Below, piece after piece: positions 1,794-19,609 of a DNA stretch of 20,000 bases; positions within the stretch are counted from its first letter, which is position 1, and each line of letters begins with the position of its first letter. The stretch comes from an uncultured virus (IMG/VR IMGVR_UViG_3300029977_000134) (lineage: Duplodnaviria; Heunggongvirae; Uroviricota; Caudoviricetes). Where the stretch lies: IMG/VR virus record IMGVR_UViG_3300029977_000134, one strand, 5' to 3'. The translations under genes were made by a program, and so were the position numbers. Under the pieces are notes generated by a model. It made no database searches. It was not told where the DNA came from and saw only the letters and a list, made by a program, of their open reading frames with translations.

Positions 1794-3074
1794 ATGACGA
1801 ACAACAATGAGATTTCTTTATATGAGGAAACATTAGATGCTTATGCAAAGGAATTTGCTAACTATATTACTCCAAAAGGAGACACTATATTTGGTTTCTG
1901 GATGCAAACATTGGCGGATTTGGAATTTTTGGATTTGGAATTACAAGGTTTAACTGATGAGTATAAAATTGATGCGGTAAATAGGGTGGTTAATTTCAAG
2001 GGCGACGATGATTTTATAAGATTAAGAATTGCTCACCTTGAAAAAGTAAAAGGAAAAACGACTCTCTATACTGAATTTGTGGATAAATTCGGAGATACTA
2101 ATGCTTATGCATTCCATAATCTTTACCCATACAAAGGAAAATTTTATCCGAGAGTTGTGAGAACTCTAATTAATGCCTTCAAGCTTGATAGTAATTCACT
2201 TCTCTTGGACCCTTTTAATGGCTCTGGAACCACCACACATGAAGCTTCGATTATGGGGATTAAAAGTGTTGGTATAGATGTTACTCCAATGGGTGTTATA
2301 CTATCGGAATTGAAAAATGATTTACTTTTTGCAGATGAAGAGAAGTTGAACTTTTCACAAGAGGATTTGCAAGATATTTTGCAAGCGATAGAAAATAGAC
2401 AATGGGAACATAGCGACCCTCTGATATACAAATTAATGCTTGTGGTGTACTTTGATACGGTTGATGCATTCGCAAGAACTTCGAGGTATAATAAAAAGGG
2501 TAAGATTGGACTTTTTGTGGAGAAATTCAATTACATAAGAGATTGCTACAGGAAAACTAAAGAAATAAAAGAAAAGTACGGACTTAAATTTGAGCCCGCT
2601 AAAATAATAGAAGGGGATGTCATGGAGCTCAAAAATATGAGTGAGTTTGAAGGGAAATTTGATGCGTGCATTACAAGTCCACCTTACTATTTTTCGATAG
2701 ATTATGTAGGGAAAGATAAAATTGCCTATGATTATTTGGGGATTGATATGAAAAAGATTGAATCAAAATACTTGGGAATGAAAGAGGGAACACCAAGTGG
2801 TAATTATAGCGGACTGCCTACAAAAGTTGCTATGTATTACGAAGACTTGAAAGAATCCATTAAGAATATTTACTGGGCATTAAAACCCGGTGGTAAGTTG
2901 GCAATCATAGTTGGAGATAGTACCGTCAATGGTAAGAAAATTCCGACAACGATGATGACCAAGAGATTTTGTGAAGAGGTAGGATTTAGATTTGAAAGGT
3001 TAATATTCAATCCACTTTTAGGTGCTCGTAATAGGGCAATAAGAGGAGAAAGTGTGATAATTTGTAAAAAATAA
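1794..3074 (+). CDS. DNA methyltransferase, N4-cytosine/N6-adenine type (SPPY, probably m4C), motif I before motif IV
   Basis: HNLYPYKGKF (motif X), LLDPFNGSGTT (motif I) and ITSPPYY (motif IV). RBS AAGGAGGT. Confidence 0.92.
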   Translation: MTNNNEISLYEETLDAYAKEFANYITPKGDTIFGFWMQTLADLEFLDLELQGLTDEYKIDAVNRVVNFKGDDDFIRLRIAHLEKVKGKTTLYTEFVDKFGDTNAYAFHNLYPYKGKFYPRVVRTLINAFKLDSNSLLLDPFNGSGTTTHEASIMGIKSVGIDVTPMGVILSELKNDLLFADEEKLNFSQEDLQDILQAIENRQWEHSDPLIYKLMLVVYFDTVDAFARTSRYNKKGKIGLFVEKFNYIRDCYRKTKEIKEKYGLKFEPAKIIEGDVMELKNMSEFEGKFDACITSPPYYFSIDYVGKDKIAYDYLGIDMKKIESKYLGMKEGTPSGNYSGLPTKVAMYYEDLKESIKNIYWALKPGGKLAIIVGDSTVNGKKIPTTMMTKRFCEEVGFRFERLIFNPLLGARNRAIRGESVIICKK

Positions 3075-3085
3075 ATGCTCCTAAC

Positions 3086-3114
3086 TTGACAGCTCAAAAG
3101 GAATGCCTTATAAT
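3086..3114 (+). promoter_or_regulatory. Consensus sigma70-type promoter
   Basis: TTGACA (3086-3091), 17-nt spacer, TATAAT (3109-3114), upstream of RBS and ATG 3146. Confidence 0.85.
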
Positions 3115-3145
3115 TAGATACGTTAAAACTAAGCAGGAGGTAAAA

Positions 3146-3958
3146 ATGTCAAACAAAATCAATGATATAGACCTTTCAAGGTGGAAAGAATACGACGAAA
3201 TAATTACTGATAGTCTCTGGGTTTTCAATAGAAGAGACACTTCAGGAGCTCACTCGGGTTGGTATTGGGGAAACTTTATCCCACAAATTCCCCGTCAAAT
3301 GATGTTAAGATACACAAAGAAAGGTGACTGGGTGTTGGACCCCTTTGTTGGAAGTGGAACAACTTTGATTGAATGTAGAAGGTTAGGAAGAAACGGAATT
3401 GGTATAGAGTTAAATCCAGATGTAGCCCAGAAAGCAAGGGAATTAGTAGAAACCGAGCAGAACATTGATAATGTGATTACAGAAATAGTTGTTGGGGATA
3501 GCAGAACAGTTGATATAAAGCAGGTCTTATCAAAATATGGTATTGACAAAGTTCAATTAGTTATTATGCACCCTCCATACCATGATATTATCAAATTTTC
3601 TAATGATAAACGAGACCTCTCTAATGCAGAAAGTATAGAGGAATTCCTGCAGATGTTTGGACAGGTTGTTGAAAACGTTACTCCATTTTTAGAAGAAGAA
3701 AGATACCTTGCTTCAGTAATTGGTGATAAGTATTCCAAGAGTGAATGGATACCGCTTGGGTTTTATTGTATGAATGAAGTTTTGAAGAGGGGATATATGT
3801 TAAAAAGTATAGTTGTAAAAAACTTTGAGGAAACAAGAGGGAAGAAGAACCAAAGAGAACTCTGGAGATATAGGGCACTGGCTAATGGTTTTTATGTTTT
3901 TAAACACGAGTATATTATGATTTTCAAGAAAAACAAAGAAAACCGTAAGGAGGAGTAA
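3146..3958 (+). CDS. DNA methyltransferase (N4/N6 amino-MTase, HPPY variant)
   Basis: WGNFIPQIPRQMMLRY, VLDPFVGSGTT (motif I), IMHPPYHD (motif IV), C-terminal HEYIMIFKK. Start moved to ATG 3146 (RBS AGGAGGT); the track's TTG at 3086 is the -35 box. Confidence 0.92.
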   Translation: MSNKINDIDLSRWKEYDEIITDSLWVFNRRDTSGAHSGWYWGNFIPQIPRQMMLRYTKKGDWVLDPFVGSGTTLIECRRLGRNGIGIELNPDVAQKARELVETEQNIDNVITEIVVGDSRTVDIKQVLSKYGIDKVQLVIMHPPYHDIIKFSNDKRDLSNAESIEEFLQMFGQVVENVTPFLEEERYLASVIGDKYSKSEWIPLGFYCMNEVLKRGYMLKSIVVKNFEETRGKKNQRELWRYRALANGFYVFKHEYIMIFKKNKENRKEE

Positions 3959-4059: not shown

Positions 4060-4695
4060 ATGGTTGACGTGCTTGATACAAAGTATGGAGAAGTAGAAAT
4101 AAAAGAAGTAGATTGGCATAGGGGTATGATCCCCTTACCAAGTGGTACAATGATAATAGATGATAAAGTGGTTCAAAAGATAGCACGGGAGTATGGGCTT
4201 GATAAAAAGTTGGATCTAGTAGAGGAGTTTCTCGAGTACTGTGGAATAAATATATATTCTATGGACTTCTCCTCCAGTTACACAGAATTTTTGCATCCTG
4301 GTAGTCCTGATTTGGGGTATAATTTTCATGTAGATTGGATCGATACAGAGATTGAAGATTCTGATATAGAAGATTTTTCAGAAGACTTATCTCCAGAAGA
4401 TAAAAGGTTTCTTTTACAAAAGAAAGAAGATATTGAAGGATTCCTCGATAGTATTAATGATATATATGATAAAATGCTTGACTATGTAGATTCATATGTT
4501 CAATCACTGGAAGAGGAAGCACGTTATGGTGACTCAGAAGAGGGAGATGATGAATTAGAAGAATATGATGAGCCTGAGTTTGATGAAGATACTGAGCCTG
4601 ATTTTGATGAAGATGATGAATCTGGGCTTGACGAAGTTTATGAACCTGAGCTTGATGAAGGCGATGAACCTGAGTTTGATGAAGATGATTGGTAA
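4060..4695 (+). CDS. Highly acidic protein (about 35% D/E) with C-terminal octapeptide repeats
   Basis: Own promoter and strong RBS. Tail DEPEFDED/TEPDFDED/DESGLDEV/YEPELDEG/DEPEFDED. Confidence 0.85.
   Translation: MVDVLDTKYGEVEIKEVDWHRGMIPLPSGTMIIDDKVVQKIAREYGLDKKLDLVEEFLEYCGINIYSMDFSSSYTEFLHPGSPDLGYNFHVDWIDTEIEDSDIEDFSEDLSPEDKRFLLQKKEDIEGFLDSINDIYDKMLDYVDSYVQSLEEEARYGDSEEGDDELEEYDEPEFDEDTEPDFDEDDESGLDEVYEPELDEGDEPEFDEDDW
4567..4686 (+). repeat. In-frame 24-nt tandem repeat, 5 degenerate copies
   Basis: Consensus GATGARCCTGAGYTTGATGAAGAT, with units starting at 4567, 4591, 4615, 4639 and 4663. Confidence 0.9.
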
Positions 4696-7552: not shown

Positions 7553-7620
7553 GTTTGAAAGCCCTCCAGTTCGAACCAATAGTGGATATAATCTCTATCA
7601 AGCCTGGGAGGTTGGATGAA

Positions 7621-7968
7621 GTGAAAAGACTGGGGGTACATATCATATTCGAACTATACGGGTGTGACCCAGACACCCTGAAGGATAAGAACTATGTGGA
7701 AGAAGTTATGCTCAGAGCGGCTCGTGAATCCAATGCCCACGCCATTGGTTCTTTCTTCCATCAATTCAAGCCCCATGGAGTATCAGGTGTAATTATCATT
7801 GAGGAGTCTCACCTTTCTATCCATACCTGGCCTGAGCACAGTTATGCAGCTATAGACTTCTTTTATTGTTCAGATGATGTAGAACCGTTAAAAGCAATGA
7901 AAGTATTTTCAGAAAGTTTTAAACCACAAGCAATAGAAAAACAAGTAATTGATAGGGGGTTGGTTTGA
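7621..7968 (+). CDS. speD: S-adenosylmethionine decarboxylase proenzyme (class 1b, pyruvoyl-dependent)
   Basis: LGVHIIFELYGCD...HQFKPHGVSGVIIIEE|SHLSIHTWPEH..AIDFFYC...RG. Start set at GTG 7621 (GGAGG 7607-7611), matching the typical MKxLGxH N-terminus. Confidence 0.92.
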   Translation: MKRLGVHIIFELYGCDPDTLKDKNYVEEVMLRAARESNAHAIGSFFHQFKPHGVSGVIIIEESHLSIHTWPEHSYAAIDFFYCSDDVEPLKAMKVFSESFKPQAIEKQVIDRGLV

Positions 7969-8012: not shown

Positions 8013-8915
8013 ATGAAACTTGGTATAGACCTTGGATTTGGGTTCACGAAAATAGCGTATGCTACGCCTGATGGGAATATCACTACTTTAAAGTTCCCTT
8101 CCTGGGTAGCATACTTTGAAAGAACCCCAATGAGCCAAATAGAACCTATTGAAGTGGACGGAATTGAATATGTTGTAGGTGAATACGCTAAATATGAAAG
8201 ACAGAAGCTTGAGATGGCTTCCATTGAAGAATTTGTCAAGCTTTCTCCAATTCTGGTCAAGGAAGCTATTAGAAGAACTGGAAGCCCTACGGAAATGGTT
8301 GTTGGAATAGCTCCAAAATTTAAAGATTACCGCTCAGAGATTGAAAAGCGTATTCATAGTACAATTCCTGGAAACTATGAACTTTCAGTAATGCCTCAGG
8401 GGTTCGGGGCTTACATTGATTTAATTGATACAAAACCTGAACTTACTCAAGAAGATATTCTTATTGTTGACATTGGATTTAACACAGTAGATTACATTCT
8501 TATCTCCAATGGTAAAAGAATCAAAGGAAACACAATTGAAAAACTTGGAATGACTGAAGCTGTAAACATTTTCCGTTCACTTATTCCACCTTCATACTCT
8601 CAATTACAAAACTATTCACCTTCAAGACTTTTACAGATTTTTGAATCCCCAAAGGGTGAAGTTCTCGTTATGGGAAGTACATTGAACCTTTCAAGCTTTA
8701 GGGAGAAAGCTATCATAAGGTATTCTGAACTTGTTCTTTCAAGGCTTAAGGAAGAGGTTGGCTCACTTATCACTGAAATACCTTATATTCTTGTAGTTGG
8801 TGGTGGTGCTTACTATGTCAAATTACCTCTTAGGAATGTGATTATCCCAGACCAACCTGAATACGCTAATGCCAGAGGGTTCTTGAAGTATACTGCAATA
8901 AAAAAGGAAAGCTAA
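8013..8915 (+). CDS. parM: ParM/StbA-family actin-like ATPase
   Basis: GIDLGFGFTK (phosphate 1), VMPQG (connect 1), IVDIGFNTVD (phosphate 2), VVGGGAY (adenosine) and PEYANARGF (connect 2). RBS AAGGAGGT. Confidence 0.9.
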   Translation: MKLGIDLGFGFTKIAYATPDGNITTLKFPSWVAYFERTPMSQIEPIEVDGIEYVVGEYAKYERQKLEMASIEEFVKLSPILVKEAIRRTGSPTEMVVGIAPKFKDYRSEIEKRIHSTIPGNYELSVMPQGFGAYIDLIDTKPELTQEDILIVDIGFNTVDYILISNGKRIKGNTIEKLGMTEAVNIFRSLIPPSYSQLQNYSPSRLLQIFESPKGEVLVMGSTLNLSSFREKAIIRYSELVLSRLKEEVGSLITEIPYILVVGGGAYYVKLPLRNVIIPDQPEYANARGFLKYTAIKKES

Positions 8916-8938: not shown

Positions 8939-10399
8939 ATGGAAAACTTAAAAAACAAGCGTCGAATATATGGAGAGCACCTGACCTCTATTGGTATATT
9001 CAAAGATTACATCCTCCCAGAGATAAAGGACAAGTTATACAGTTACCGATGGGTTGATTTGTTTTGTGGTGAAGGAAATCTAATCCTTCCAATTTTAGAA
9101 ATAATACCTCCCGACGAAAGGGTTGAATTCTTTAAGGAGCACATCTTCCTATTTGATATTCAAGAAGAAATGATTGAAAAATCCGTTTTGAATGCAACGA
9201 AATATGGTATTCCAGAGGATGTGGCAAGACAGAACATTATTCAAAGAGATACGATAAAGAACTACCCAACCTTCATATTAGACAGTGATTTACCAGTTTA
9301 CCATATTACAAATCCACCCTACCTTTATATAGGATACATTGCAAAGCACAAGGAGACCCAGAAATACTTGGATTACTTCAAAGACGAGAACAAAGGTTAT
9401 CAAGACCTTTACCAGTTAGCATTGATGAACGACTTAAGACATGGAATAAAAAACATGGTATATATTATTCCGTCAAATTTTCTCTTTGGGTTTTCAGTAT
9501 CCAATAAGATTAGGAACGATTTTCTACCTTACTACAACATCAAAAAGGCATTTATCTTTGAGAAGAAGATATTTGACTTTACTGGAACCAATGTTGGTAT
9601 TTTCTTCTTCGAAAGAAAAGATAACCCTGAAAAAGAGAGGATAAAGTTTGAAGGTGTAAGAGTAGGTAGAGGTGTTAGTAAGAAAGTATACATTCTTGAC
9701 CCAAAGAACAACTTTAGAGCGAGGAATGAGTTTGAAGAGTTTGTTAAACGGCTTAAAGCCCCTGAACCGTTAGAAGTGTTTTACTATCTGACTGTAGAGG
9801 ATGTTGAAAAGCATAAAGGGAACAAAGAACTGAAGGTAATAGATGTCAACGATTACAATGGCAAAGAATACGCAAAGAAATCTGTATTTGTTGATGATAG
9901 AGTCTATGAGAAAGTAAAATCAAATATTTTATTCATTAGAACAGTTGATACTGGCAGTTATGATGGTAGGGTTGGTTTGTATGTAGTAAATGAAGTATTC
10001 GGTGTAGATGGAATATTAGTGTCAAAATCACCCTATAGAACTCACCCAATACAAGTTTTCCTTTCTCCTGACATACCTCCAGAATACCAGCTAATACTTA
10101 AGGATTACTTCAACCTACTAATAGAGTATTTCAGAGAAAAGACTGACAGCGAATTTATGACAACCTATAAATATTCAAACAGTGGTTACACAAGAAAATA
10201 TCTTGGACTTACGCAGGCCCGAGCCTTAATAGAAACCTTTCCAATTCTTTCTCTAACCAAAGAACAACTCAAGAAACTTCTAAGCATAATAGAAAGGAAA
10301 GATGCCGAAAGTTTAATAGCCTACATGCAACACTTACATAAGCAACTTGACAGTTCACTAAAAGAATACTATAACTATGGCACAGAGGAGGAAACATGA
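8939..10399 (+). CDS. N6-adenine DNA methyltransferase (gamma-like motif order)
   Basis: YGEHLT (motif X), WVDLFCGEGNL (motif I), ITNPPY (motif IV) and YIIPSNFL. Confidence 0.88.
   Translation: MENLKNKRRIYGEHLTSIGIFKDYILPEIKDKLYSYRWVDLFCGEGNLILPILEIIPPDERVEFFKEHIFLFDIQEEMIEKSVLNATKYGIPEDVARQNIIQRDTIKNYPTFILDSDLPVYHITNPPYLYIGYIAKHKETQKYLDYFKDENKGYQDLYQLALMNDLRHGIKNMVYIIPSNFLFGFSVSNKIRNDFLPYYNIKKAFIFEKKIFDFTGTNVGIFFFERKDNPEKERIKFEGVRVGRGVSKKVYILDPKNNFRARNEFEEFVKRLKAPEPLEVFYYLTVEDVEKHKGNKELKVIDVNDYNGKEYAKKSVFVDDRVYEKVKSNILFIRTVDTGSYDGRVGLYVVNEVFGVDGILVSKSPYRTHPIQVFLSPDIPPEYQLILKDYFNLLIEYFREKTDSEFMTTYKYSNSGYTRKYLGLTQARALIETFPILSLTKEQLKKLLSIIERKDAESLIAYMQHLHKQLDSSLKEYYNYGTEEET
10347..10375 (+). 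promoter_or_regulatory. sigma70-type promoter inside the 3' end of the MTase ORF
   Basis: TTGACA (10347-10352), 17-nt spacer, TATAAC (10370-10375), then GAGGAGG and ATG 10396. Confidence 0.75.
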
Positions 10400-10689
10400 G
10401 AAAAAAAGGTAAAAAAGTAATCCCCGTCTCAGTTGCCCTCCCACCACAAATTATTGAACAGATTGACAAAATTGCAGAAGAAAGAAATTTGTCAAGGTCC
10501 AAAGTTATAGTATTAGCAATTGAGAATTTTTTAAACGGGGGTCCTGTGGCCCAATTGTCCAGCTCCAACGGAAATAGTTTTCACTCTCCAGCAAATATCG
10601 GACGGGCTGCAGGATCCCCGCCAAAAATTGTACAGAAAAAGACCACTTTTAATAGTGGTCTAAACCCAGAAGATTTCTGGGGAGAATGA
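10396..10689 (+). CDS. Ribbon-helix-helix (CopG/ParR-like) DNA-binding protein
   Basis: VIPVSVALPPQIIEQIDKIAEERNLSRSKVIVLAIENFL fits the RHH pattern, with a low-complexity linker and acidic/aromatic tail LNPEDFWGE. Lies near parM. Confidence 0.85.
   Translation: MRKKGKKVIPVSVALPPQIIEQIDKIAEERNLSRSKVIVLAIENFLNGGPVAQLSSSNGNSFHSPANIGRAAGSPPKIVQKKTTFNSGLNPEDFWGE
10536..10623 (+). other. GC-rich RNA-type hairpin embedded in the RHH gene
   Basis: CGGGGGTCCTGTGGCCC (10536-10552) pairs with GGGCTGCAGGATCCCCG (10604-10620), 17 bp including 3 G-U pairs. Inner GTCC/GGAC helix; ends in GCCA. Confidence 0.65.
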
Positions 10690-13653: not shown

Positions 13654-14355
13654 TTATATTGGGAAGTCATCCCAATGGTCATCATCGTCAAAGTCATCTT
13701 CTGAAAGTTCACCCACATCTCCTGATTCTTCAATCTTTTTTAATTTCTCTTCAGTTGGTTCTCTTTCAGATATTTCTCTCCATTTCCTTTTTCTATACCT
13801 TCTAGTGCGTTCTTCAAATCCTCTCATTCTTCTTTCCGCTTGCTCTTTTTCATATTGGGTAGTAAACTTCCCAAAAATATAGTCATCAGGTGTAACAACA
13901 AAGTCAATAAATACATAAGCAAATGCCTCTGCCAGGTCGTCTTCACCAAAAACTCTTCTGAGGAAGTCTTTTGACTTATCTAGTAGTGTATCAACTGGAT
14001 CTTTACCTTTTACCTCATAGTCCTCTTTTGTAAGGTGAACATTGAACGGTATTTCCTTATTCTCAAGTGTGTCAAAGTAGTACAACTCATCTCCTCTATC
14101 TGTTAACCTATATATTAGATCCAAATTACTGATGACCAAATCCACAATGTCATCAAGTTTTCTCCGAATTACATGTGTTACCTTATCTACTAACGCAAAA
14201 GGACTGCGAGAGTTCCTTACCTCATGCTTTAGCTCGTCTAGAATTTCGGATGGGATTGTTTCTGAAATGGCTTCTATCACTGCTCCTTTTATATCACTTT
14301 CCTTAATATATTTTTTGTTTTTACTACTTCTAGGATTATTTCTATTTAGTGGCAT
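13654..14355 (-). CDS. Hypothetical protein (233 aa) with acidic tail; paralogue of 14403..15269
   Basis: Aligns with the adjacent ORF (EIPFNVHL/EIFFNVDL, EPTEEKLK/EPTKEKIK). RBS GGGGGT. Confidence 0.85.
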   Translation of the reverse strand: MPLNRNNPRSSKNKKYIKESDIKGAVIEAISETIPSEILDELKHEVRNSRSPFALVDKVTHVIRRKLDDIVDLVISNLDLIYRLTDRGDELYYFDTLENKEIPFNVHLTKEDYEVKGKDPVDTLLDKSKDFLRRVFGEDDLAEAFAYVFIDFVVTPDDYIFGKFTTQYEKEQAERRMRGFEERTRRYRKRKWREISEREPTEEKLKKIEESGDVGELSEDDFDDDDHWDDFPI

Positions 14356-14402: not shown

Positions 14403-15269
14403 TCAGTCTTCATCTTCGTCATCGTCATCTTTCTCGTCTTCGTCTTCATCCCAATCTTCATCATCAGGAGATGGTTCTTCTAAATCAACATCAAACAGGT
14501 CTGTATAAGGGGGCTCCTCCAAATCATAGTCAGGTAGGTCTAATTCTTTATCATCTATATCTTCCATGTCTTCCTCATCATATTCATCTTTAGACTTATC
14601 TACTATTCTATCAAGTAGACTTCTTCTACCGTATTCCTCCTCACTACTCTTTCCCTTTCTCCACCCTTCAATCTTTTCATCCACCTGTTTTATTTTCTCT
14701 TTCGTCGGCTCTTCTTTATCACTGGGTGCACTTTTTGTAGGTTTAGGATTGAGTACATAATGGACAAGTATATCAAAGAACTCACCAGCAAGATCCTTTG
14801 TATGTAAGCATTTTTTCAGGAATTCTTCGGTCTTTTCCATCACCCTTCCCCAGGCTATATCCTCTTCTCTTCTCATCATTTCATATTCCTCTTCAGCTTC
14901 ATCTTCATCCTTATCAGTATATCTTACATTTTTCAAGTCAATCTCGAGATCAACATTGAAAAATATCTCATCCTGGGTATATGGATCACGGTAGAATAAG
15001 TCATACTTTTTGCTACCTTCAACAGTCAACCCTAAAAGAAAGCTATTTATATGATCAATGATCTTATCCATATAGTTCTCAATTACAGGGGCATACTCAT
15101 CTTTCAAACTCCATGGGTTATCGGACTTCTTTATTTTGGAAATCATTCTACTTAATAAACTTGGGGATAATTCATGTACAATGGCATGTACTATCTCATC
15201 TTTTAGTTCACGCCCAGTGATTACCTTTTTATCATCCCTCCTTGGGGTTACTTCATCATCTATTGGCAT
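14403..15269 (-). CDS. Hypothetical protein (288 aa) with long acidic tail; paralogue of 13654..14355
   Basis: RBS GGAGGT, shared helical domain, D/E-rich C-terminus. Confidence 0.85.
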   Translation of the reverse strand: MPIDDEVTPRRDDKKVITGRELKDEIVHAIVHELSPSLLSRMISKIKKSDNPWSLKDEYAPVIENYMDKIIDHINSFLLGLTVEGSKKYDLFYRDPYTQDEIFFNVDLEIDLKNVRYTDKDEDEAEEEYEMMRREEDIAWGRVMEKTEEFLKKCLHTKDLAGEFFDILVHYVLNPKPTKSAPSDKEEPTKEKIKQVDEKIEGWRKGKSSEEEYGRRSLLDRIVDKSKDEYDEEDMEDIDDKELDLPDYDLEEPPYTDLFDVDLEEPSPDDEDWDEDEDEKDDDDEDED

Positions 15270-15314: not shown

Positions 15315-16988
15315 CTACAGTTTGTTTTCCTTTAAACCCTCGACAAAAATTCTATAAATTACATCTATAGGATCCACATCCCTATATCCAAGTTTACTTG
15401 CAAGCCTTTTACCAAATTCCTCAAGAATATAGAAATAACCTACACCCTTACTAGCAAGCAAGATTCTACCTCCAAGTTTTTCATAAAGCGTAGTAAGTAT
15501 TTCTTCTTTACACTCTTTAATCTGTCCTTTTATAAATTTTGCAACTTTTCTATCTGCATCTATATCATTCCTCACCAACTCGATGAAATCTTCAATCCTA
15601 TCCCAATCCAAAACTTCATCAACAACGCTTGCTACAATCATTTTGAGAGCCGCTGTCTTATTGTCATCTAACTCCTTGTCCTCTGAGGTCTGGGTATCAC
15701 TTTCTGGACTTTCGGCTGGGATTTGCTGTTCAGGTTCACTAGTTTGGGGTGTTTCTTTGGTTTCATCCTTTGGAGTTTCATCTTTACCACTGTCTTGCTT
15801 CCCTTTCTGACCACCTTGCTGCTTTCCTTGCAGTATTTCTTGTATTCTCTGTTTTCTCTTCTCTATGTCTGATTTTCCAACACCCTTTACACCAACACCT
15901 CTTGTGAATGGAACATATGTAATTCCAGTAGCTTCTGGGAATACCTCAAGGACATGAACCTTAAAAACTGGTATAAACAAATCACCTCTAGGAAGATCCC
16001 AGTCAAATCCTTTTTCTCCTTTCTTTACTTTTTCAGGTCTTTCATACGTATAATAATCCAATATATCATCTTCACTCTTTCCATCTTCAAATGCTTGCAT
16101 GGCATAATCACACTCAATCCACCACCACTTACCATCTCTTGCATAGAGAATTGACCATTGGTCATACGTCACTCCAATTTCAACAGCTGTCTTTAAATCA
16201 ATGTCAGTTACAATGAACCCACCTTCTCCAGAAACCATCTGGTTAGTTGAACTATCGAACCAAGCACCTTTCTGTGTAGTTACTGTATAATTGCCTGGGC
16301 CGAGTTTATTGTCTAAAATTTCCTTAATTGGAATGAGTTTTCTTTTTTCCTCATACAAACCCATTTTTCTCTTCTTTCGGTATTTGTTTATGTCTGGCAT
16401 TAGTTGTCTTAAAAACTGCAGATACTCCTGCTTTTCTTCTTCAGTTATTTGCGTAGGACCACCATTAACCCCTTTCCATACCAACCTGTAGAATTTCTTA
16501 TCAGCCCTTCTGAGAGGATCATAATTTGAAGAGCTCTTGTATGTTGAAATAAACGCCATACCTTTCTTTGAGGGTGAGGAGGCGGAACTTGAAGAGGAGT
16601 AAAAGCTTTTCAATATTCTAATTGTAGTCCTCATTTCACCCTCAGACAGGGATACACAAGAATCCTCAAGCTTTTGGAGTTCATTATCAGAGAGAATCCC
16701 GTAGAACTTTCCAATTTTCTCTTTTGTACTAGAATCAATTTCAGCTTCAACTCTATCAAGGAAATTTAACAAGCAAGAGTATTTTTGCAGCCTACTAGTC
16801 CAGTTTGCACCTAATGTATCCAATATAGAGGTGGAATCCATCTTTGATAGATCTTCTGATTTTTCCTTCTCTTCCAGCTCTTTCCAATCGATTCCAAGTT
16901 CTGCTGGATCGTAATCTATTTCTACTGGATTTTCCTTAGCCCGCTTTCTGATACCCAACAGCTTATTTAGGTTATACACGTAAAACAT
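15315..16988 (-). CDS. Multidomain protein (557 aa): putative SAM-lyase/DUF3293-like domain, linker, and C-terminal domain shared with the two downstream genes
   Basis: RBS AAGGAGGT. Motifs MAFISTYK...INKYR...KGAW...GEGGFIV...AVEIGVTYDQWSILY. The CDS itself is well supported; the domain call is by eye. Confidence 0.6.
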   Translation of the reverse strand: MFYVYNLNKLLGIRKRAKENPVEIDYDPAELGIDWKELEEKEKSEDLSKMDSTSILDTLGANWTSRLQKYSCLLNFLDRVEAEIDSSTKEKIGKFYGILSDNELQKLEDSCVSLSEGEMRTTIRILKSFYSSSSSASSPSKKGMAFISTYKSSSNYDPLRRADKKFYRLVWKGVNGGPTQITEEEKQEYLQFLRQLMPDINKYRKKRKMGLYEEKRKLIPIKEILDNKLGPGNYTVTTQKGAWFDSSTNQMVSGEGGFIVTDIDLKTAVEIGVTYDQWSILYARDGKWWWIECDYAMQAFEDGKSEDDILDYYTYERPEKVKKGEKGFDWDLPRGDLFIPVFKVHVLEVFPEATGITYVPFTRGVGVKGVGKSDIEKRKQRIQEILQGKQQGGQKGKQDSGKDETPKDETKETPQTSEPEQQIPAESPESDTQTSEDKELDDNKTAALKMIVASVVDEVLDWDRIEDFIELVRNDIDADRKVAKFIKGQIKECKEEILTTLYEKLGGRILLASKGVGYFYILEEFGKRLASKLGYRDVDPIDVIYRIFVEGLKENKL

Positions 16989-17116
16989 ACTCTACCTCCT
17001 TAAATTTCATTTTTGACTTAAGAAGTTCTTCACAAGTTTTATCATGACACTTTAAACCATTCCATTTACAATACAAACTTATAGTTTAAAACTCTCGAAA
17101 AGTAAAGAGCCACTAT

Positions 17117-19609
17117 TTATTCACCCCCACACTTTGTTCCAGTATAACCACAATATGGGCAAGGATGATCGCAGTCAAACGGGTATTTTCTATCAGACAC
17201 TACCGCCCTGCCACAATTTGGACAGGTCGAAACAACATCGGAATTTGAAATTGAGAAGACACCAGTATTTTTAACTGATATGATTGGTTTTGTCATCAAA
17301 GCACTCGATAAAGTCTTTTCATACTCAGCCTCAACATCAACATTCTTTTTAAACCATTCAAGAACTCTTGCAAGGATAGCCGGCTTTGAAGGTATAAGAT
17401 ACCCAAAGAAGACTTCACCCTGTTTACCTACTGCTTTCACATTCTTTAAACCTTCAATAAGGAATGAATAATCCTCCCCAACGAGAGCTAACCTTCTTAA
17501 TACAGCTGAAAGGAGTTGTGACAGTGCAACCCACCAGGAGATTTCATCCATTGCATTTGTATTAACAAAAACTTCAAGCGGACTTCGGGTTTCCTTATCA
17601 TAAGTTACCGTTACATAGTAATTGTTATCTTCATACTTGACCTTGTAAGTTCTTGCCTCTAAAACAAATGGTCTCTTTGGAACTCGAATATTAAGGAACC
17701 CATTCTTTCCGTTTTCTTCTTCCTTCTCTTTCTTTTCAGGTTTCTTTACTTTCCTCAAAACCTCAACTTCCCTTGAACCCGTTCTGTAAATTGTAATTCC
17801 CTTAAGCCCAGATTCCCAAGCCCTCATATATATCTTCTCGACTTCTTCAACCGTTGCACTGTTAGGAAGGTTAATTGTCTGCGAGATAGAATTGTCAACA
17901 TACGTCTGCCATATCTTTGTATTTTCAATTCTTGCATCAATTGATACATCTTCAGTGGTTTCAAGGTAAGGTAATTTCATTTTCATTTCGTCAATAATAG
18001 TCAGTATTTCATTGGTGTCCAGAGTTTCCAGGTCTTTTTCAGGATAGTTCATCTTTACATAATTTTCAAGGATACTAACAACCGTTGGGTAAACTATAAG
18101 TTCTTCTTTCCCAAGACTTTCAGACCATCTTTTCATATAAAGGGAAAACATTGGTTCAATGGAAGAAGAAACTCCAGCCAGAAGTGAAATAGTTCCAGTC
18201 GGAGCTATTGAAAGTAATGCAACATTTCTTATGCCTTTCTCGTCAAACATTTTCTTATATTTCTCAGGAAGAAGGTTGTAAATTCTCTGCATAAACCTAC
18301 TTCTCATCATACCTTCATGGTCAAAAGCGGGATAAGGTCCGAACTGGTCAGCAAGTTCGATAGAAGTTTTATAGGCCGTAATTGCCATAGTCTGTGCAAT
18401 CTTTTCAACAAACTTGTAAGCTTCACTTTCAGGGTTTGCAAGGTCATTGAACTTATAACCTTTAAGGAATAGTAAATCTGCAAGACCCATAACTCCAAGT
18501 CCAAGCCTTCTACCCCTTCTATGAGATTCAGCCTGCTGTGGAAGTGGATGCCTATCAAGGTTGTAATCTACTACTGCATCAAGAAATACTATGCCAGCCT
18601 GAACCGCCCTTTCAAATTCAGGAAAATCGAAATCTTTTGTCATCGGGTCATAAAAACTAACAAGATTAAGGGAACCTAAATTACAACAACCGTAATCTTC
18701 AAGGAATATTTCACCACACGGATTAGTACACGTTACGGGTGCAAAGTATTCTGAATTTGATTCAACCTTTGCATTGTCAATAAATAGAACTCCAGGTTCT
18801 CCAAATCTCCAGGCCCTTTCCGCAATCTTTCTGAAAAGTTCCCGAGCATTAACTTCCCTTTCAATCGGTGGGTATTTCCCATCTGGGAATTCAAATCTTA
18901 ACTTGAAAGGTTTGTTTTCTTTTACCGCTTCCATAAACTCGTTTGTAATTATTACAGAAATGTTTGCCCTTTTAACTTGAGCTTCCGTAAGAGCCTTTTC
19001 AATTATCTGAAGAACTGCCTCTTCAACGCTATCTCCGAGCCTACCCTTTATTGTATTGTAAATCGACTTTGCCCATTCCTCGTATAATTCAGACTTAATC
19101 TTCAGGAAATCTTCAATATCTGGATGATCAACTCGCATTGCAAGAAGTAAAGCACCCCTTCTACCCATTTGACCAATTGTATCGGTTGTAACGGAAGCAA
19201 GGTTCATAAAAGATACCGCACCCGTTGAATACCTTGCCGAATTTGAAACTGGAGAACCTTTAGGTCTTAATCTCGACAGGTCAGAACCAACCCCACCACC
19301 ATACGAATAGGTCTTCGCCATTTCACCAAGCCACTTGAATATACCTTCAATACTGTCTTCAGTTATTGGAATGTTATAACAGTTGAGAAGAGTTGCCTTG
19401 GTTCCTTCTCTTCCCGCTCCAAAAATAATACGACCACCTGGAATGAAAGCTTTGTTTTTCATTAACTTCTTTATTCGGTCCTTATAGAGTTTTGGTTGAA
19501 TAGCTTCAACTATCCTTTCTACCGCTTTCTCCCAAGTTTCACCATCAACCGCATACTTTTTCTTAAAAATTTCAGACGAAAATTTGTTGTACAAATCCAA
19601 AAGCTGCAT
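17117..19609 (-). CDS. nrdJ: Class II (adenosylcobalamin-dependent) ribonucleotide reductase with C-terminal TSCPD-like domain and Cys cluster
   Basis: PGGRI, LLNCY, GGGVG, DHPDI, TNPCGE, CNLGSLNL, GLGVMG, IAPTGTIS, SQTIN and KGITIYR (no class I YY pair). C-terminal CPNCG..CPYCG..C. No ATP cone or intein. Confidence 0.93.
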   Translation of the reverse strand: MQLLDLYNKFSSEIFKKKYAVDGETWEKAVERIVEAIQPKLYKDRIKKLMKNKAFIPGGRIIFGAGREGTKATLLNCYNIPITEDSIEGIFKWLGEMAKTYSYGGGVGSDLSRLRPKGSPVSNSARYSTGAVSFMNLASVTTDTIGQMGRRGALLLAMRVDHPDIEDFLKIKSELYEEWAKSIYNTIKGRLGDSVEEAVLQIIEKALTEAQVKRANISVIITNEFMEAVKENKPFKLRFEFPDGKYPPIEREVNARELFRKIAERAWRFGEPGVLFIDNAKVESNSEYFAPVTCTNPCGEIFLEDYGCCNLGSLNLVSFYDPMTKDFDFPEFERAVQAGIVFLDAVVDYNLDRHPLPQQAESHRRGRRLGLGVMGLADLLFLKGYKFNDLANPESEAYKFVEKIAQTMAITAYKTSIELADQFGPYPAFDHEGMMRSRFMQRIYNLLPEKYKKMFDEKGIRNVALLSIAPTGTISLLAGVSSSIEPMFSLYMKRWSESLGKEELIVYPTVVSILENYVKMNYPEKDLETLDTNEILTIIDEMKMKLPYLETTEDVSIDARIENTKIWQTYVDNSISQTINLPNSATVEEVEKIYMRAWESGLKGITIYRTGSREVEVLRKVKKPEKKEKEEENGKNGFLNIRVPKRPFVLEARTYKVKYEDNNYYVTVTYDKETRSPLEVFVNTNAMDEISWWVALSQLLSAVLRRLALVGEDYSFLIEGLKNVKAVGKQGEVFFGYLIPSKPAILARVLEWFKKNVDVEAEYEKTLSSALMTKPIISVKNTGVFSISNSDVVSTCPNCGRAVVSDRKYPFDCDHPCPYCGYTGTKCGGE

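Follow-up and report, generated by a model that had tools for sequence, protein, structure and literature searches.

Positions 15315..16988 on the minus strand of the DNA analysed here (20,000 nt from an uncultured virus of the Caudoviricetes, IMG/VR record IMGVR_UViG_3300029977_000134; the whole stretch is called the window below) are occupied by an open reading frame (ORF) of 557 codons plus stop. Its predicted product was labelled P0001, and all residue numbers refer to this 557-aa protein. A Shine-Dalgarno-like sequence, AAGGAGGT (16994..17001, minus strand), can be read 5 nt 5' of the ATG at 16988. Together with seven metagenomic homologues retrieved by a word-index search (47–91% identity), P0001 makes up a family of eight sequences. 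The gene is genuine and conserved; among solved structures, S-adenosylmethionine (SAM) lyases come closest to the predicted fold of its central domain, and the candidate catalytic residues of that domain are invariant. Judging from the predicted fold, P0001 is probably a counter-defence enzyme, divergent and unusually large.

The protein can be divided into several regions, all encoded on the minus strand. An N-terminal tail (residues 1–51; 16836..16988) is predicted to be disordered, with a predicted local distance difference test score (pLDDT) below 50 for residues 1–53; in the family alignment its first ~20 residues are conserved and are followed by a variable, low-complexity stretch. The tail leads into an N-terminal helical domain (residues 52–131; 16596..16835; helices predicted over residues 52–130, pLDDT ~57–89), for which no match was found in Pfam, PHROGs or NCBIfam. 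The central, SAM-lyase-like domain is well modelled over residues 143–325 (16014..16562). It contains, between strands β1 and β2, a basic helical insertion of ~85 residues (150–234; 16287..16541; isoelectric point 9.8; helices 159–170, 183–206 and 221–229) and, after it, the candidate catalytic core (residues 235–292; 16113..16286), composed of β2, T-loop, β3, α2, B-loop, β4 and β5 and including G241 (16266–16268), W243, E255 (16224–16226) and Q277 (16158–16160). A conserved, strand-prone extension (residues 326–372; 15873..16013; pLDDT <50) includes the motif LPRGDLFIP...GVGVK, and is followed by a linker rich in Q, K, E, T, P and S (residues 373–441; 15666..15872), predicted to be disordered (pLDDT <50 for 385–441), and by a C-terminal helical domain (residues 442–557; 15318..15665). 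A weak match of the linker to DUF2201_N (E 0.082) falls in low-complexity sequence.

The initial annotation of the window had placed a SAM-lyase domain at 15900–16562, coordinates that correspond to residues 143–363, on the basis of five strings whose order it likened to that in the SAM lyase (SAMase) of phage T3. When the translation was checked, the ORF and all five strings proved to be as claimed and in the order given: MAFISTYKS (144–152), INKYR (200–204), QKGAWF (239–244), SGEGGFIV (253–260, with E255) and AVEIGVTYDQWSILY (268–282, with Q277). The T3 strings given for comparison all occur verbatim in the translated T3 gene 0.3 of the public record, and the T3 gene 0.3 protein matches the Pfam family PF23780 (S-AdoMet_lyase) with an E-value of 5.7e-42 (143 bits). 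As a sequence statistic, however, the motif likeness to T3 SAMase claimed on these grounds is not above chance, Smith-Waterman alignment, hhalign and hidden Markov model (HMM) comparison all giving background values (detailed below). Because of this, support for the meaning of the strings rests on the fold and not on the motifs.

Two AlphaFold2 models were built without templates, one of the full-length protein and one of residues 143–372 alone. The full-length model has a mean pLDDT of 65, with values of ~78–94 in the central domain, while the domain model has a predicted template modelling score (pTM) of 0.74 and pLDDT values mostly above 85 over residues 143–315. The layout is the same in both: β1 (143–148), the three helices of the insertion, β2 (235–245), a loop of ~10 residues, β3 (250–263), α2 (265–274), β4 (279–284) and β5 (287–292), and then two helices. 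The models predict for the central domain a ferredoxin-like βαββαβ core, with three helices taking the place of the single α1. A PII-like ferredoxin sandwich is the fold shared by T3 gp0.3, Svi3-3 and the DUF3293/S-AdoMet_lyase group.

Structure searches with these models led to the SAM lyases. In the PDB, Foldseek ranked the Svi3-3 SAM lyase (6zm9) first with both models (E 0.76 and 0.035). When VIA-align was run against 48,161 PDB representatives without the Foldseek pre-filter, the two top chains were T3 SAM lyase and Svi3-3, and the three representatives of the SAM-lyase family ranked 1, 2 and 4 in one run and 1, 2 and 16 in another. In a second-look alignment of the domain model, the best four of 983 chains were all SAM lyases (7ock, 7.2; 8bb1, 6.4; 6znb, 5.7; 6zm9, 5.4), as were the best three of 999 chains with the full model; PII, GlnK and CutA proteins scored only 3.4–3.9. 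The modelled domain thus shows the ferredoxin-like, PII-like order β1-α1-β2-β3-α2-β4 and lies closest to the solved SAM lyases, as is expected of a member of their structural family. The best rows from BFVD (E 1.5e-3 to 2e-3, probability 0.96–0.99) were unnamed phage proteins; among the matches there, two proteins bear the name SAM hydrolase (ranks 17 and 44) and one the name DUF3293 (rank 25), and several of the matches are long (538–923 aa). The VIA alignment to T3 SAM lyase extends to model residues 347–359, within the strand-prone extension. Additional C-terminal strands are described for T3 SAMase in the available text of PMC8406200; residues 326–372 may supply extra strands of this kind, or may become ordered only in an oligomer.

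Two approaches based on sequence pointed in the same direction. At E <= 10, the Pfam profile of DUF3293 (PF11697) aligned with residues 254–278 (profile positions 47–71 of 73; E 0.25, or 0.1 with the domain alone), that is, on the segment running from the candidate Glu to the candidate Gln, and did so in seven of the eight family members (best E 0.023). A scan of the T3 record for DUF3293 gave nothing, its control being positive only in Deinococcus radiodurans. An Atlas language-model search with residues 140–370 gave best scores of 0.90, 0.90 and 0.89 (201–205 of 256 features shared). The best matches were viral clusters of 167–219 aa carrying PF11697 DUF3293 and/or PF23780, and all ten of the best family-bearing matches share the family or clan; in contrast, the C-terminal domain used as a query returned nothing usable. 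The Atlas structure model points to the same DUF3293/S-AdoMet_lyase clusters, with template modelling (TM) scores of 0.39–0.47. The proposal that P0001 contains a SAM-lyase-fold domain with an insertion, flanked by N- and C-terminal domains, is therefore supported at the level of the fold by AlphaFold2, VIA-align, Atlas and DUF3293. As for the similarity to SAM lyases that had been suggested as a check, its structural side was borne out, SAM lyases taking the top ranks, whereas the profile comparison with T3 was negative and the Foldseek E-values were not significant.

The candidate catalytic residues can be compared with those of characterized enzymes. In active SAM lyases, only Gly56, Glu69 and Gln104 (Svi3-3 numbering) are strictly conserved, according to the accessible text of the Svi3-3 paper (PMC7877911), and the E68Q/Q94A double mutant of T3 SAMase is given as catalytically dead in the available part of a preprint (bioRxiv 10.1101/2023.02.27.530186). 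For the SAM-AMP lyase, the sections available of PMC12255297 place the Glu at the C-terminal end of a T-loop of 10–12 residues and the Gln in the B-loop between α2 and β4. In the AlphaFold2 model of P0001, E255 opens β3 immediately behind a loop of ~10 residues, and Q277 is located between α2 and β4, so that the modelled positions match those published for E69/E71 (end of the T-loop) and Q104/Q108 (B-loop) in the portions of PMC12255297 and PMC7877911 consulted. The spacing from Gly to Glu is 14 here, compared with 13 in T3 and 13 in Svi3-3 (PMC7877911, accessible text). G241, E255 and Q277 are invariant in all eight sequences and sit in matching predicted places, although G241 was aligned with T3 G55, and E255 with T3 E68, in only one of seven MAFFT runs.

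The family is an orphan. P0001 had no match in Pfam (E <= 0.01), PHROGs (E <= 0.01), NCBIfam (E <= 1) or PADLOC (E <= 0.001), and an exhaustive HMMER search over 1.84 billion representatives returned only two clusters, both the family's own. None of 45 candidates scored in a search for shorter relatives with residues 140–370 (E <= 10), and neither the whole protein nor the domain had a match in tblastn against 50,697 phage records (E <= 10). Pattern matches were confirmed in none of 227 cases in viral_contigs and none of 482 in genome_contigs (species genomes); one of 479 was confirmed in metagenome_contigs, namely contig L002, which has the same gene order as the window, judged from ORF sizes alone. 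When the PDB was searched by sequence, with the single protein and with two family profiles, no row rose above chance; ribosomal protein eS8 and spartin, for example, were aligned with the lysine-rich insert.

Compared with L002, the ratio of non-synonymous to synonymous substitution rates (dN/dS) is 0.31 for the whole ORF and is lowest, 0.14, in residues 143–372; the ORF is under purifying selection. Invariant columns amount to 56% in residues 235–284, the highest value of the protein, and to 51% in residues 326–372, as against 22–28% in the flanking domains, 21% in the helical insertion and 9% in the linker. Residues G241, A242, W243, G254–F258, I263–G272 and Y275–W278, a set that includes E255 and Q277, are invariant in all eight sequences. 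Synonymous divergence between the window and L002 is uneven, being 0.78 in the C-terminal domain, 0.34 in the linker and 0.15–0.18 in the N-terminal and core regions, and the C-terminal ends differ (ENKL in the window, QDIQ in L002). The high divergence of the C-terminal domain and the different ends suggest that this domain was swapped between lineages by recombination. An internal start at M144 was also considered, because a 414-aa homologue (P0006) begins there; it was rejected for want of a convincing ribosome-binding site upstream, and the homologue, which comes from a 2.8-kb contig, may simply be cut.

The source is an element resembling a virus or a plasmid, on a contig of ~75 kb, and is distant from every catalogued phage. 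The window also encodes a SNF2 helicase (25% identity to its best match among catalogued phages), a ribbon-helix-helix (RHH) regulator, a ParM-like actin, an Hsp20 protein, three DNA methyltransferases and a SAM decarboxylase; no tRNA and no Rfam family were found in it. Two DNA sequencing runs labelled hot-springs metagenome contain 0.24 and 0.14 of the sampled words, which is evidence neither of habitat nor of expression, and no RNA run was listed. Directly upstream of the P0001 gene on the same strand, across a 128-nt spacer, lies the large subunit of a class-II-type ribonucleotide reductase (17117–19609, minus strand; PF02867, E 1.3e-109), which carries a TSCPD domain and, as read from its translation, a Cys-rich end (CPNCG...CPYCG). 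Directly downstream are two paralogous ORFs (14403–15269 and 13654–14355, minus strand; BLASTP E 1e-12, 23% identity), for which no family was found in Pfam, PHROGs, NCBIfam or the PDB. Both end in long poly-Asp/Glu tails, and L002 carries a single 272-aa ORF in their place. The end of another ORF, at 4060–4695 on the plus strand, is an acidic EPEFDEDD-like repeat. DNA mimics are known among strongly acidic phage proteins.

The remaining features are all on the plus strand. The SAM decarboxylase (7555–7968) is of the bacterial SpeH type (PF02675, E 2e-40; TIGR03330, 7.8e-42; PHROG 3125; PDB 1vr7, 6.7e-31), so that, apart from the candidate lyase, one more enzyme of the element consumes SAM. 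The carboxylate on which lyase chemistry depends is missing from its product, decarboxylated SAM. Of the SAM-dependent DNA methyltransferases (1794–3074, 3086–3958 and 8939–10399), two are of the N6_N4_Mtase type and one is N6_Mtase-like; from the order and size of ORFs, the 486-aa methyltransferase gene is apparently missing from L002, where 111 nt separate a 97-aa and a 300-aa ORF. An actin of the ParM/ALP type (8013–8915; PHROG 691, partition protein, E 1.2e-31) and a CopG-type RHH protein (10396–10689) are segregation genes of the kind found on plasmids; the element may accordingly be a plasmid, or a plasmid-prophage that persists outside the chromosome. Two adjacent ORFs without a family (60–626 and 649–1446) are similar, by eye, over their C-terminal ~50 residues, with the shared pattern FLY..Y.GG...F.PFTE....YG.TFEE......KEV.MF, and are probably tandem paralogues.

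Taking the predicted fold and the invariant residues together, we favour, with moderate confidence, the interpretation of residues 143–372 as a very divergent phage SAM lyase, oligomeric, which would bind SAM through E255 and Q277 and lower the SAM of the host against its defences. In the mechanism that we envisage, the domain would self-associate, forming a SAM pocket between subunits. The amino group in the methionine part of SAM would be held by E255, where the short β2-β3 loop ends, and by Q277, in the α2-β4 loop; G241 would leave space for the ribose, and W243 would stand in for the Tyr that stacks on the sulphonium. The carboxylate of SAM itself would then attack Cγ, yielding 5'-methylthioadenosine and homoserine lactone, and with less SAM in the host, defences that depend on it, among them type I/III restriction and bacteriophage exclusion (BREX), would be weakened. 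Neither the flanking helical domains nor the basic insert of ~85 residues could be assigned to a family; they may bind a partner, as T3 SAMase binds MetK, or direct localization, partner binding being, by analogy with T3, a reasonable guess.

Several observations weigh against a SAM lyase. The models were built on a shallow alignment of only eight sequences, and Foldseek gave no match with E <= 0.001 in the PDB or BFVD. Smith-Waterman alignment of residues 140–370 with T3 SAMase scored 33, with a shuffle mean of 28.2 (z 1.1); 75 of 500 shuffles reached this score, and the best local alignment differs from that of the initial annotation. Three profile-profile runs of hhalign against T3-type SAM lyases gave probabilities of 0.4%, 0.1% and 0.4%, and the domain HMM gave no more than 0.7 bits on 46 T3-clade proteins compared with up to 4.7 bits on 920 shuffles. 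PF23780, whose curated cut-off is 28 bits, had no match even at E <= 10 in P0001, in the domain alone or in any of the eight members, while five other phage proteins score 96–124 bits. The likeness to DUF3293 named in advance was found at residues 254–278 in seven of the eight members, but every match is partial and below the curated cut-off, with 12–14 bits compared with a gathering score of 25 and only 25 residues, a third of the model, covered. The matches with E-values of 0.1–0.25 score 12.4–13.6 bits. The residue pairing proposed with T3 (G241-G55, W243-Y57, E255-E68 and Q277-Q94) was reproduced as a full set in only one of seven MAFFT runs, namely by E-INS-i with the T3-clade set, L-INS-i failing to recover it; Q277-Q94 alone was seen in six of the seven, and K151-R19 in all five of the runs where it was looked at. 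With the broader PF23780 set of 13 sequences, all five MAFFT modes kept K151-R19 and Q277-Q94 but shifted G241 and E255. W243 replaces the Tyr of the known enzymes (T3 Y57, Svi3-3 Tyr58), and W278 the acidic residue that follows the Gln (T3 D95, Svi3-3 E105). Finally, three SAM-dependent DNA methyltransferases in the same element fit awkwardly with a wholesale destruction of SAM.

It should be noted that some of these objections lose force on closer consideration. The 13-sequence PF23780 profile, which as a control matches T3 SAMase in the PDB at 3.8e-65, misses both Svi3-3 and the SAM-AMP lyase there at E <= 10; because it misses Svi3-3, a proven lyase, a negative sequence comparison carries little weight in the SAM-lyase family. 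The Svi3-3 paper itself (PMC7877911, available text) speaks of 'barely detectable sequence similarity'. According to the same text, the substitutions Y58F and E105Q lower the activity of Svi3-3 only 5-fold and 3-fold, respectively, and therefore the two Trp replacements need not abolish catalysis. Methyltransferases beside a putative SAM destroyer imply differences in timing, compartment or substrate. One arrangement of this kind, which we consider unlikely, is that the lyase core, instead of depleting SAM as a free protein, is tethered by the helical domains and the basic insert to a particular target in the host, for instance SAM synthetase, the incoming DNA or a complex of the restriction or BREX machinery, and removes SAM locally or at a set time, while the three methyltransferases and the SAM decarboxylase of the element use the pool; the virus would thus partition its SAM economy, P0001 being the targeted arm.

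A substrate difference is at the centre of another explanation, which keeps the fold and the lyase chemistry but makes the substrate a SAM conjugate such as SAM-AMP, so that P0001 would be an anti-CRISPR protein against CorA-type type III systems, like AcrIIIB4. Such a narrow substrate would avoid the conflict with the three methyltransferases, and the one fused phage form in print, AcrIIIB4, cleaves SAM-AMP rather than SAM (PMC12255297, sections available). However, the SAM-AMP lyase came out below both T3 SAM lyase and Svi3-3 in fold similarity in all four VIA runs, and nothing is known of a CRISPR or CorA context in the host; we accordingly think this substrate improbable. A slightly better case, though still a doubtful one, can be made for the same fold without enzymatic activity, as a PII-like module binding a ligand or a protein: a SAM or adenosine sensor, an inhibitor of SAM synthetase or a scaffold, possibly carried in the virion. 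Proteins of the PII superfamily bind nucleotides at subunit interfaces with no catalysis (accessible part of PMC12255297), and catalytically dead T3 SAMase still counters BREX through MetK binding (bioRxiv 10.1101/2023.02.27.530186, available text). The replacement of the Tyr and of the acidic residue of the known enzymes by W243 and W278 would also fit a non-enzyme; yet the losses in Svi3-3 Y58F and E105Q cited above are modest, and the Gly, Glu and Gln that are strictly conserved in active lyases (PMC7877911, as far as its accessible text goes) are present and invariant here. Also against this explanation, Pfam and PHROGs scans found no structural genes in the window.

The last explanation to be weighed is that there is no relationship at all, the domain being a generic ferredoxin-like α/β sandwich with another function that ranks SAM lyases at the top by chance or convergence. 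Every sequence-profile comparison with T3-type SAM lyases was negative, and the models derive from the shallow alignment of eight sequences, both of which would agree with such a view. On the other hand, a very small family has its three representatives all placed at ranks 1, 2 and 4, and 1, 2 and 16, among 48,161 chains, an independent language-model search returns only the SAM-lyase/DUF3293 family, the DUF3293 match sits exactly on the segment from Glu to Gln in seven of eight members, and the profile of 13 PF23780 proteins is blind also to the proven Svi3-3. A resemblance by chance or convergence therefore seems to us quite unlikely, and a divergent SAM lyase remains the interpretation that we prefer.

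SAM lyases are a proven weapon of phages against type I restriction and BREX, relatives of theirs degrade a CRISPR second messenger, and the known members are so divergent that most escape sequence searches. The P0001 family extends them by a lineage that is invisible to the curated PF23780 model, with eight finds among billions of proteins, and by an architecture of three domains whose core holds a large insert. Should P0001 prove active, it would show how much decoration the SAM-lyase fold tolerates; through their partners, the two new domains that it would add could also tell how a virus whose own methyltransferases depend on SAM targets or times its depletion of SAM. This value is tempered by one fused form, AcrIIIB4, which carries an N-terminal fusion and is already in print (PMC12255297, sections available). 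In the open-access literature searched, which does not include subscription journals or bioRxiv supplements, AcrIIIB4 was the only fused form found and no three-domain form like P0001 was met, nor was there in that literature any mention of DUF3293, PF23780, S-AdoMet_lyase or PF11697. The architecture, which the initial annotation did not recognize as described, therefore appears to be new in its three-domain form, while the idea of a fused SAM lyase was already known from AcrIIIB4.

Among the known systems, T3 gp0.3 SAM lyase (PF23780; PDB 7OCK and 8BB1) shares with the P0001 domain the order of elements β1-helix-β2-β3-α2-β4-β5, candidate equivalents of its G55, E68 and Q94 are invariant in the P0001 family, and both proteins are encoded on mobile, virus-like DNA. 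However, the similarity in sequence is undetectable, Trp is found in P0001 in the positions of Y57 and D95, and the T3 protein is a stand-alone protein of 152 aa, whereas the P0001 domain is part of a 557-aa protein with a helical insert and helical domains on both sides. The MetK-binding N-terminus of the T3 protein (bioRxiv 10.1101/2023.02.27.530186, available text) has no evident counterpart in P0001. Svi3-3 (PDB 6ZM9 and 6ZNB) is likewise similar in its short T-loop ending in the key Glu and in the key Gln located in the B-loop (PMC7877911 and PMC12255297, accessible portions), but it is a small stand-alone trimer, its spacing from Glu to Gln is 35 rather than the 22 of P0001, and its Tyr58/Glu105 pair corresponds to Trp/Trp in P0001.

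The SAM-AMP lyases (the Clostridium botulinum enzyme, PDB 9GAB, and phage AcrIIIB4) differ from P0001 in that their fold score to it is below that of the SAM lyases; AcrIIIB4, in addition, has two domains rather than three, without a described C-terminal domain or internal insert. PII, GlnB and CutA proteins have clearly lower fold scores than SAM lyases, and the T-loop of PII proteins exceeds 20 residues (PMC12255297, sections available), compared with ~10 in P0001, which therefore falls outside the PII proteins. DUF3293 (PF11697) is the sole family detected by sequence in P0001, in seven of the eight members, and co-occurs with PF23780 on the same Atlas clusters, but the P0001 matches stay below the curated cut-off and cover a third of the model. 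To our knowledge, no function has been assigned to DUF3293. The P0001 domain thus resembles a SAM lyase in its predicted fold and candidate residues, and is a member of neither PF23780 nor PF11697 by the curated models. What is new compared with these systems is the lineage itself, the large helical insert that replaces α1, and the three-domain architecture of 557 aa.

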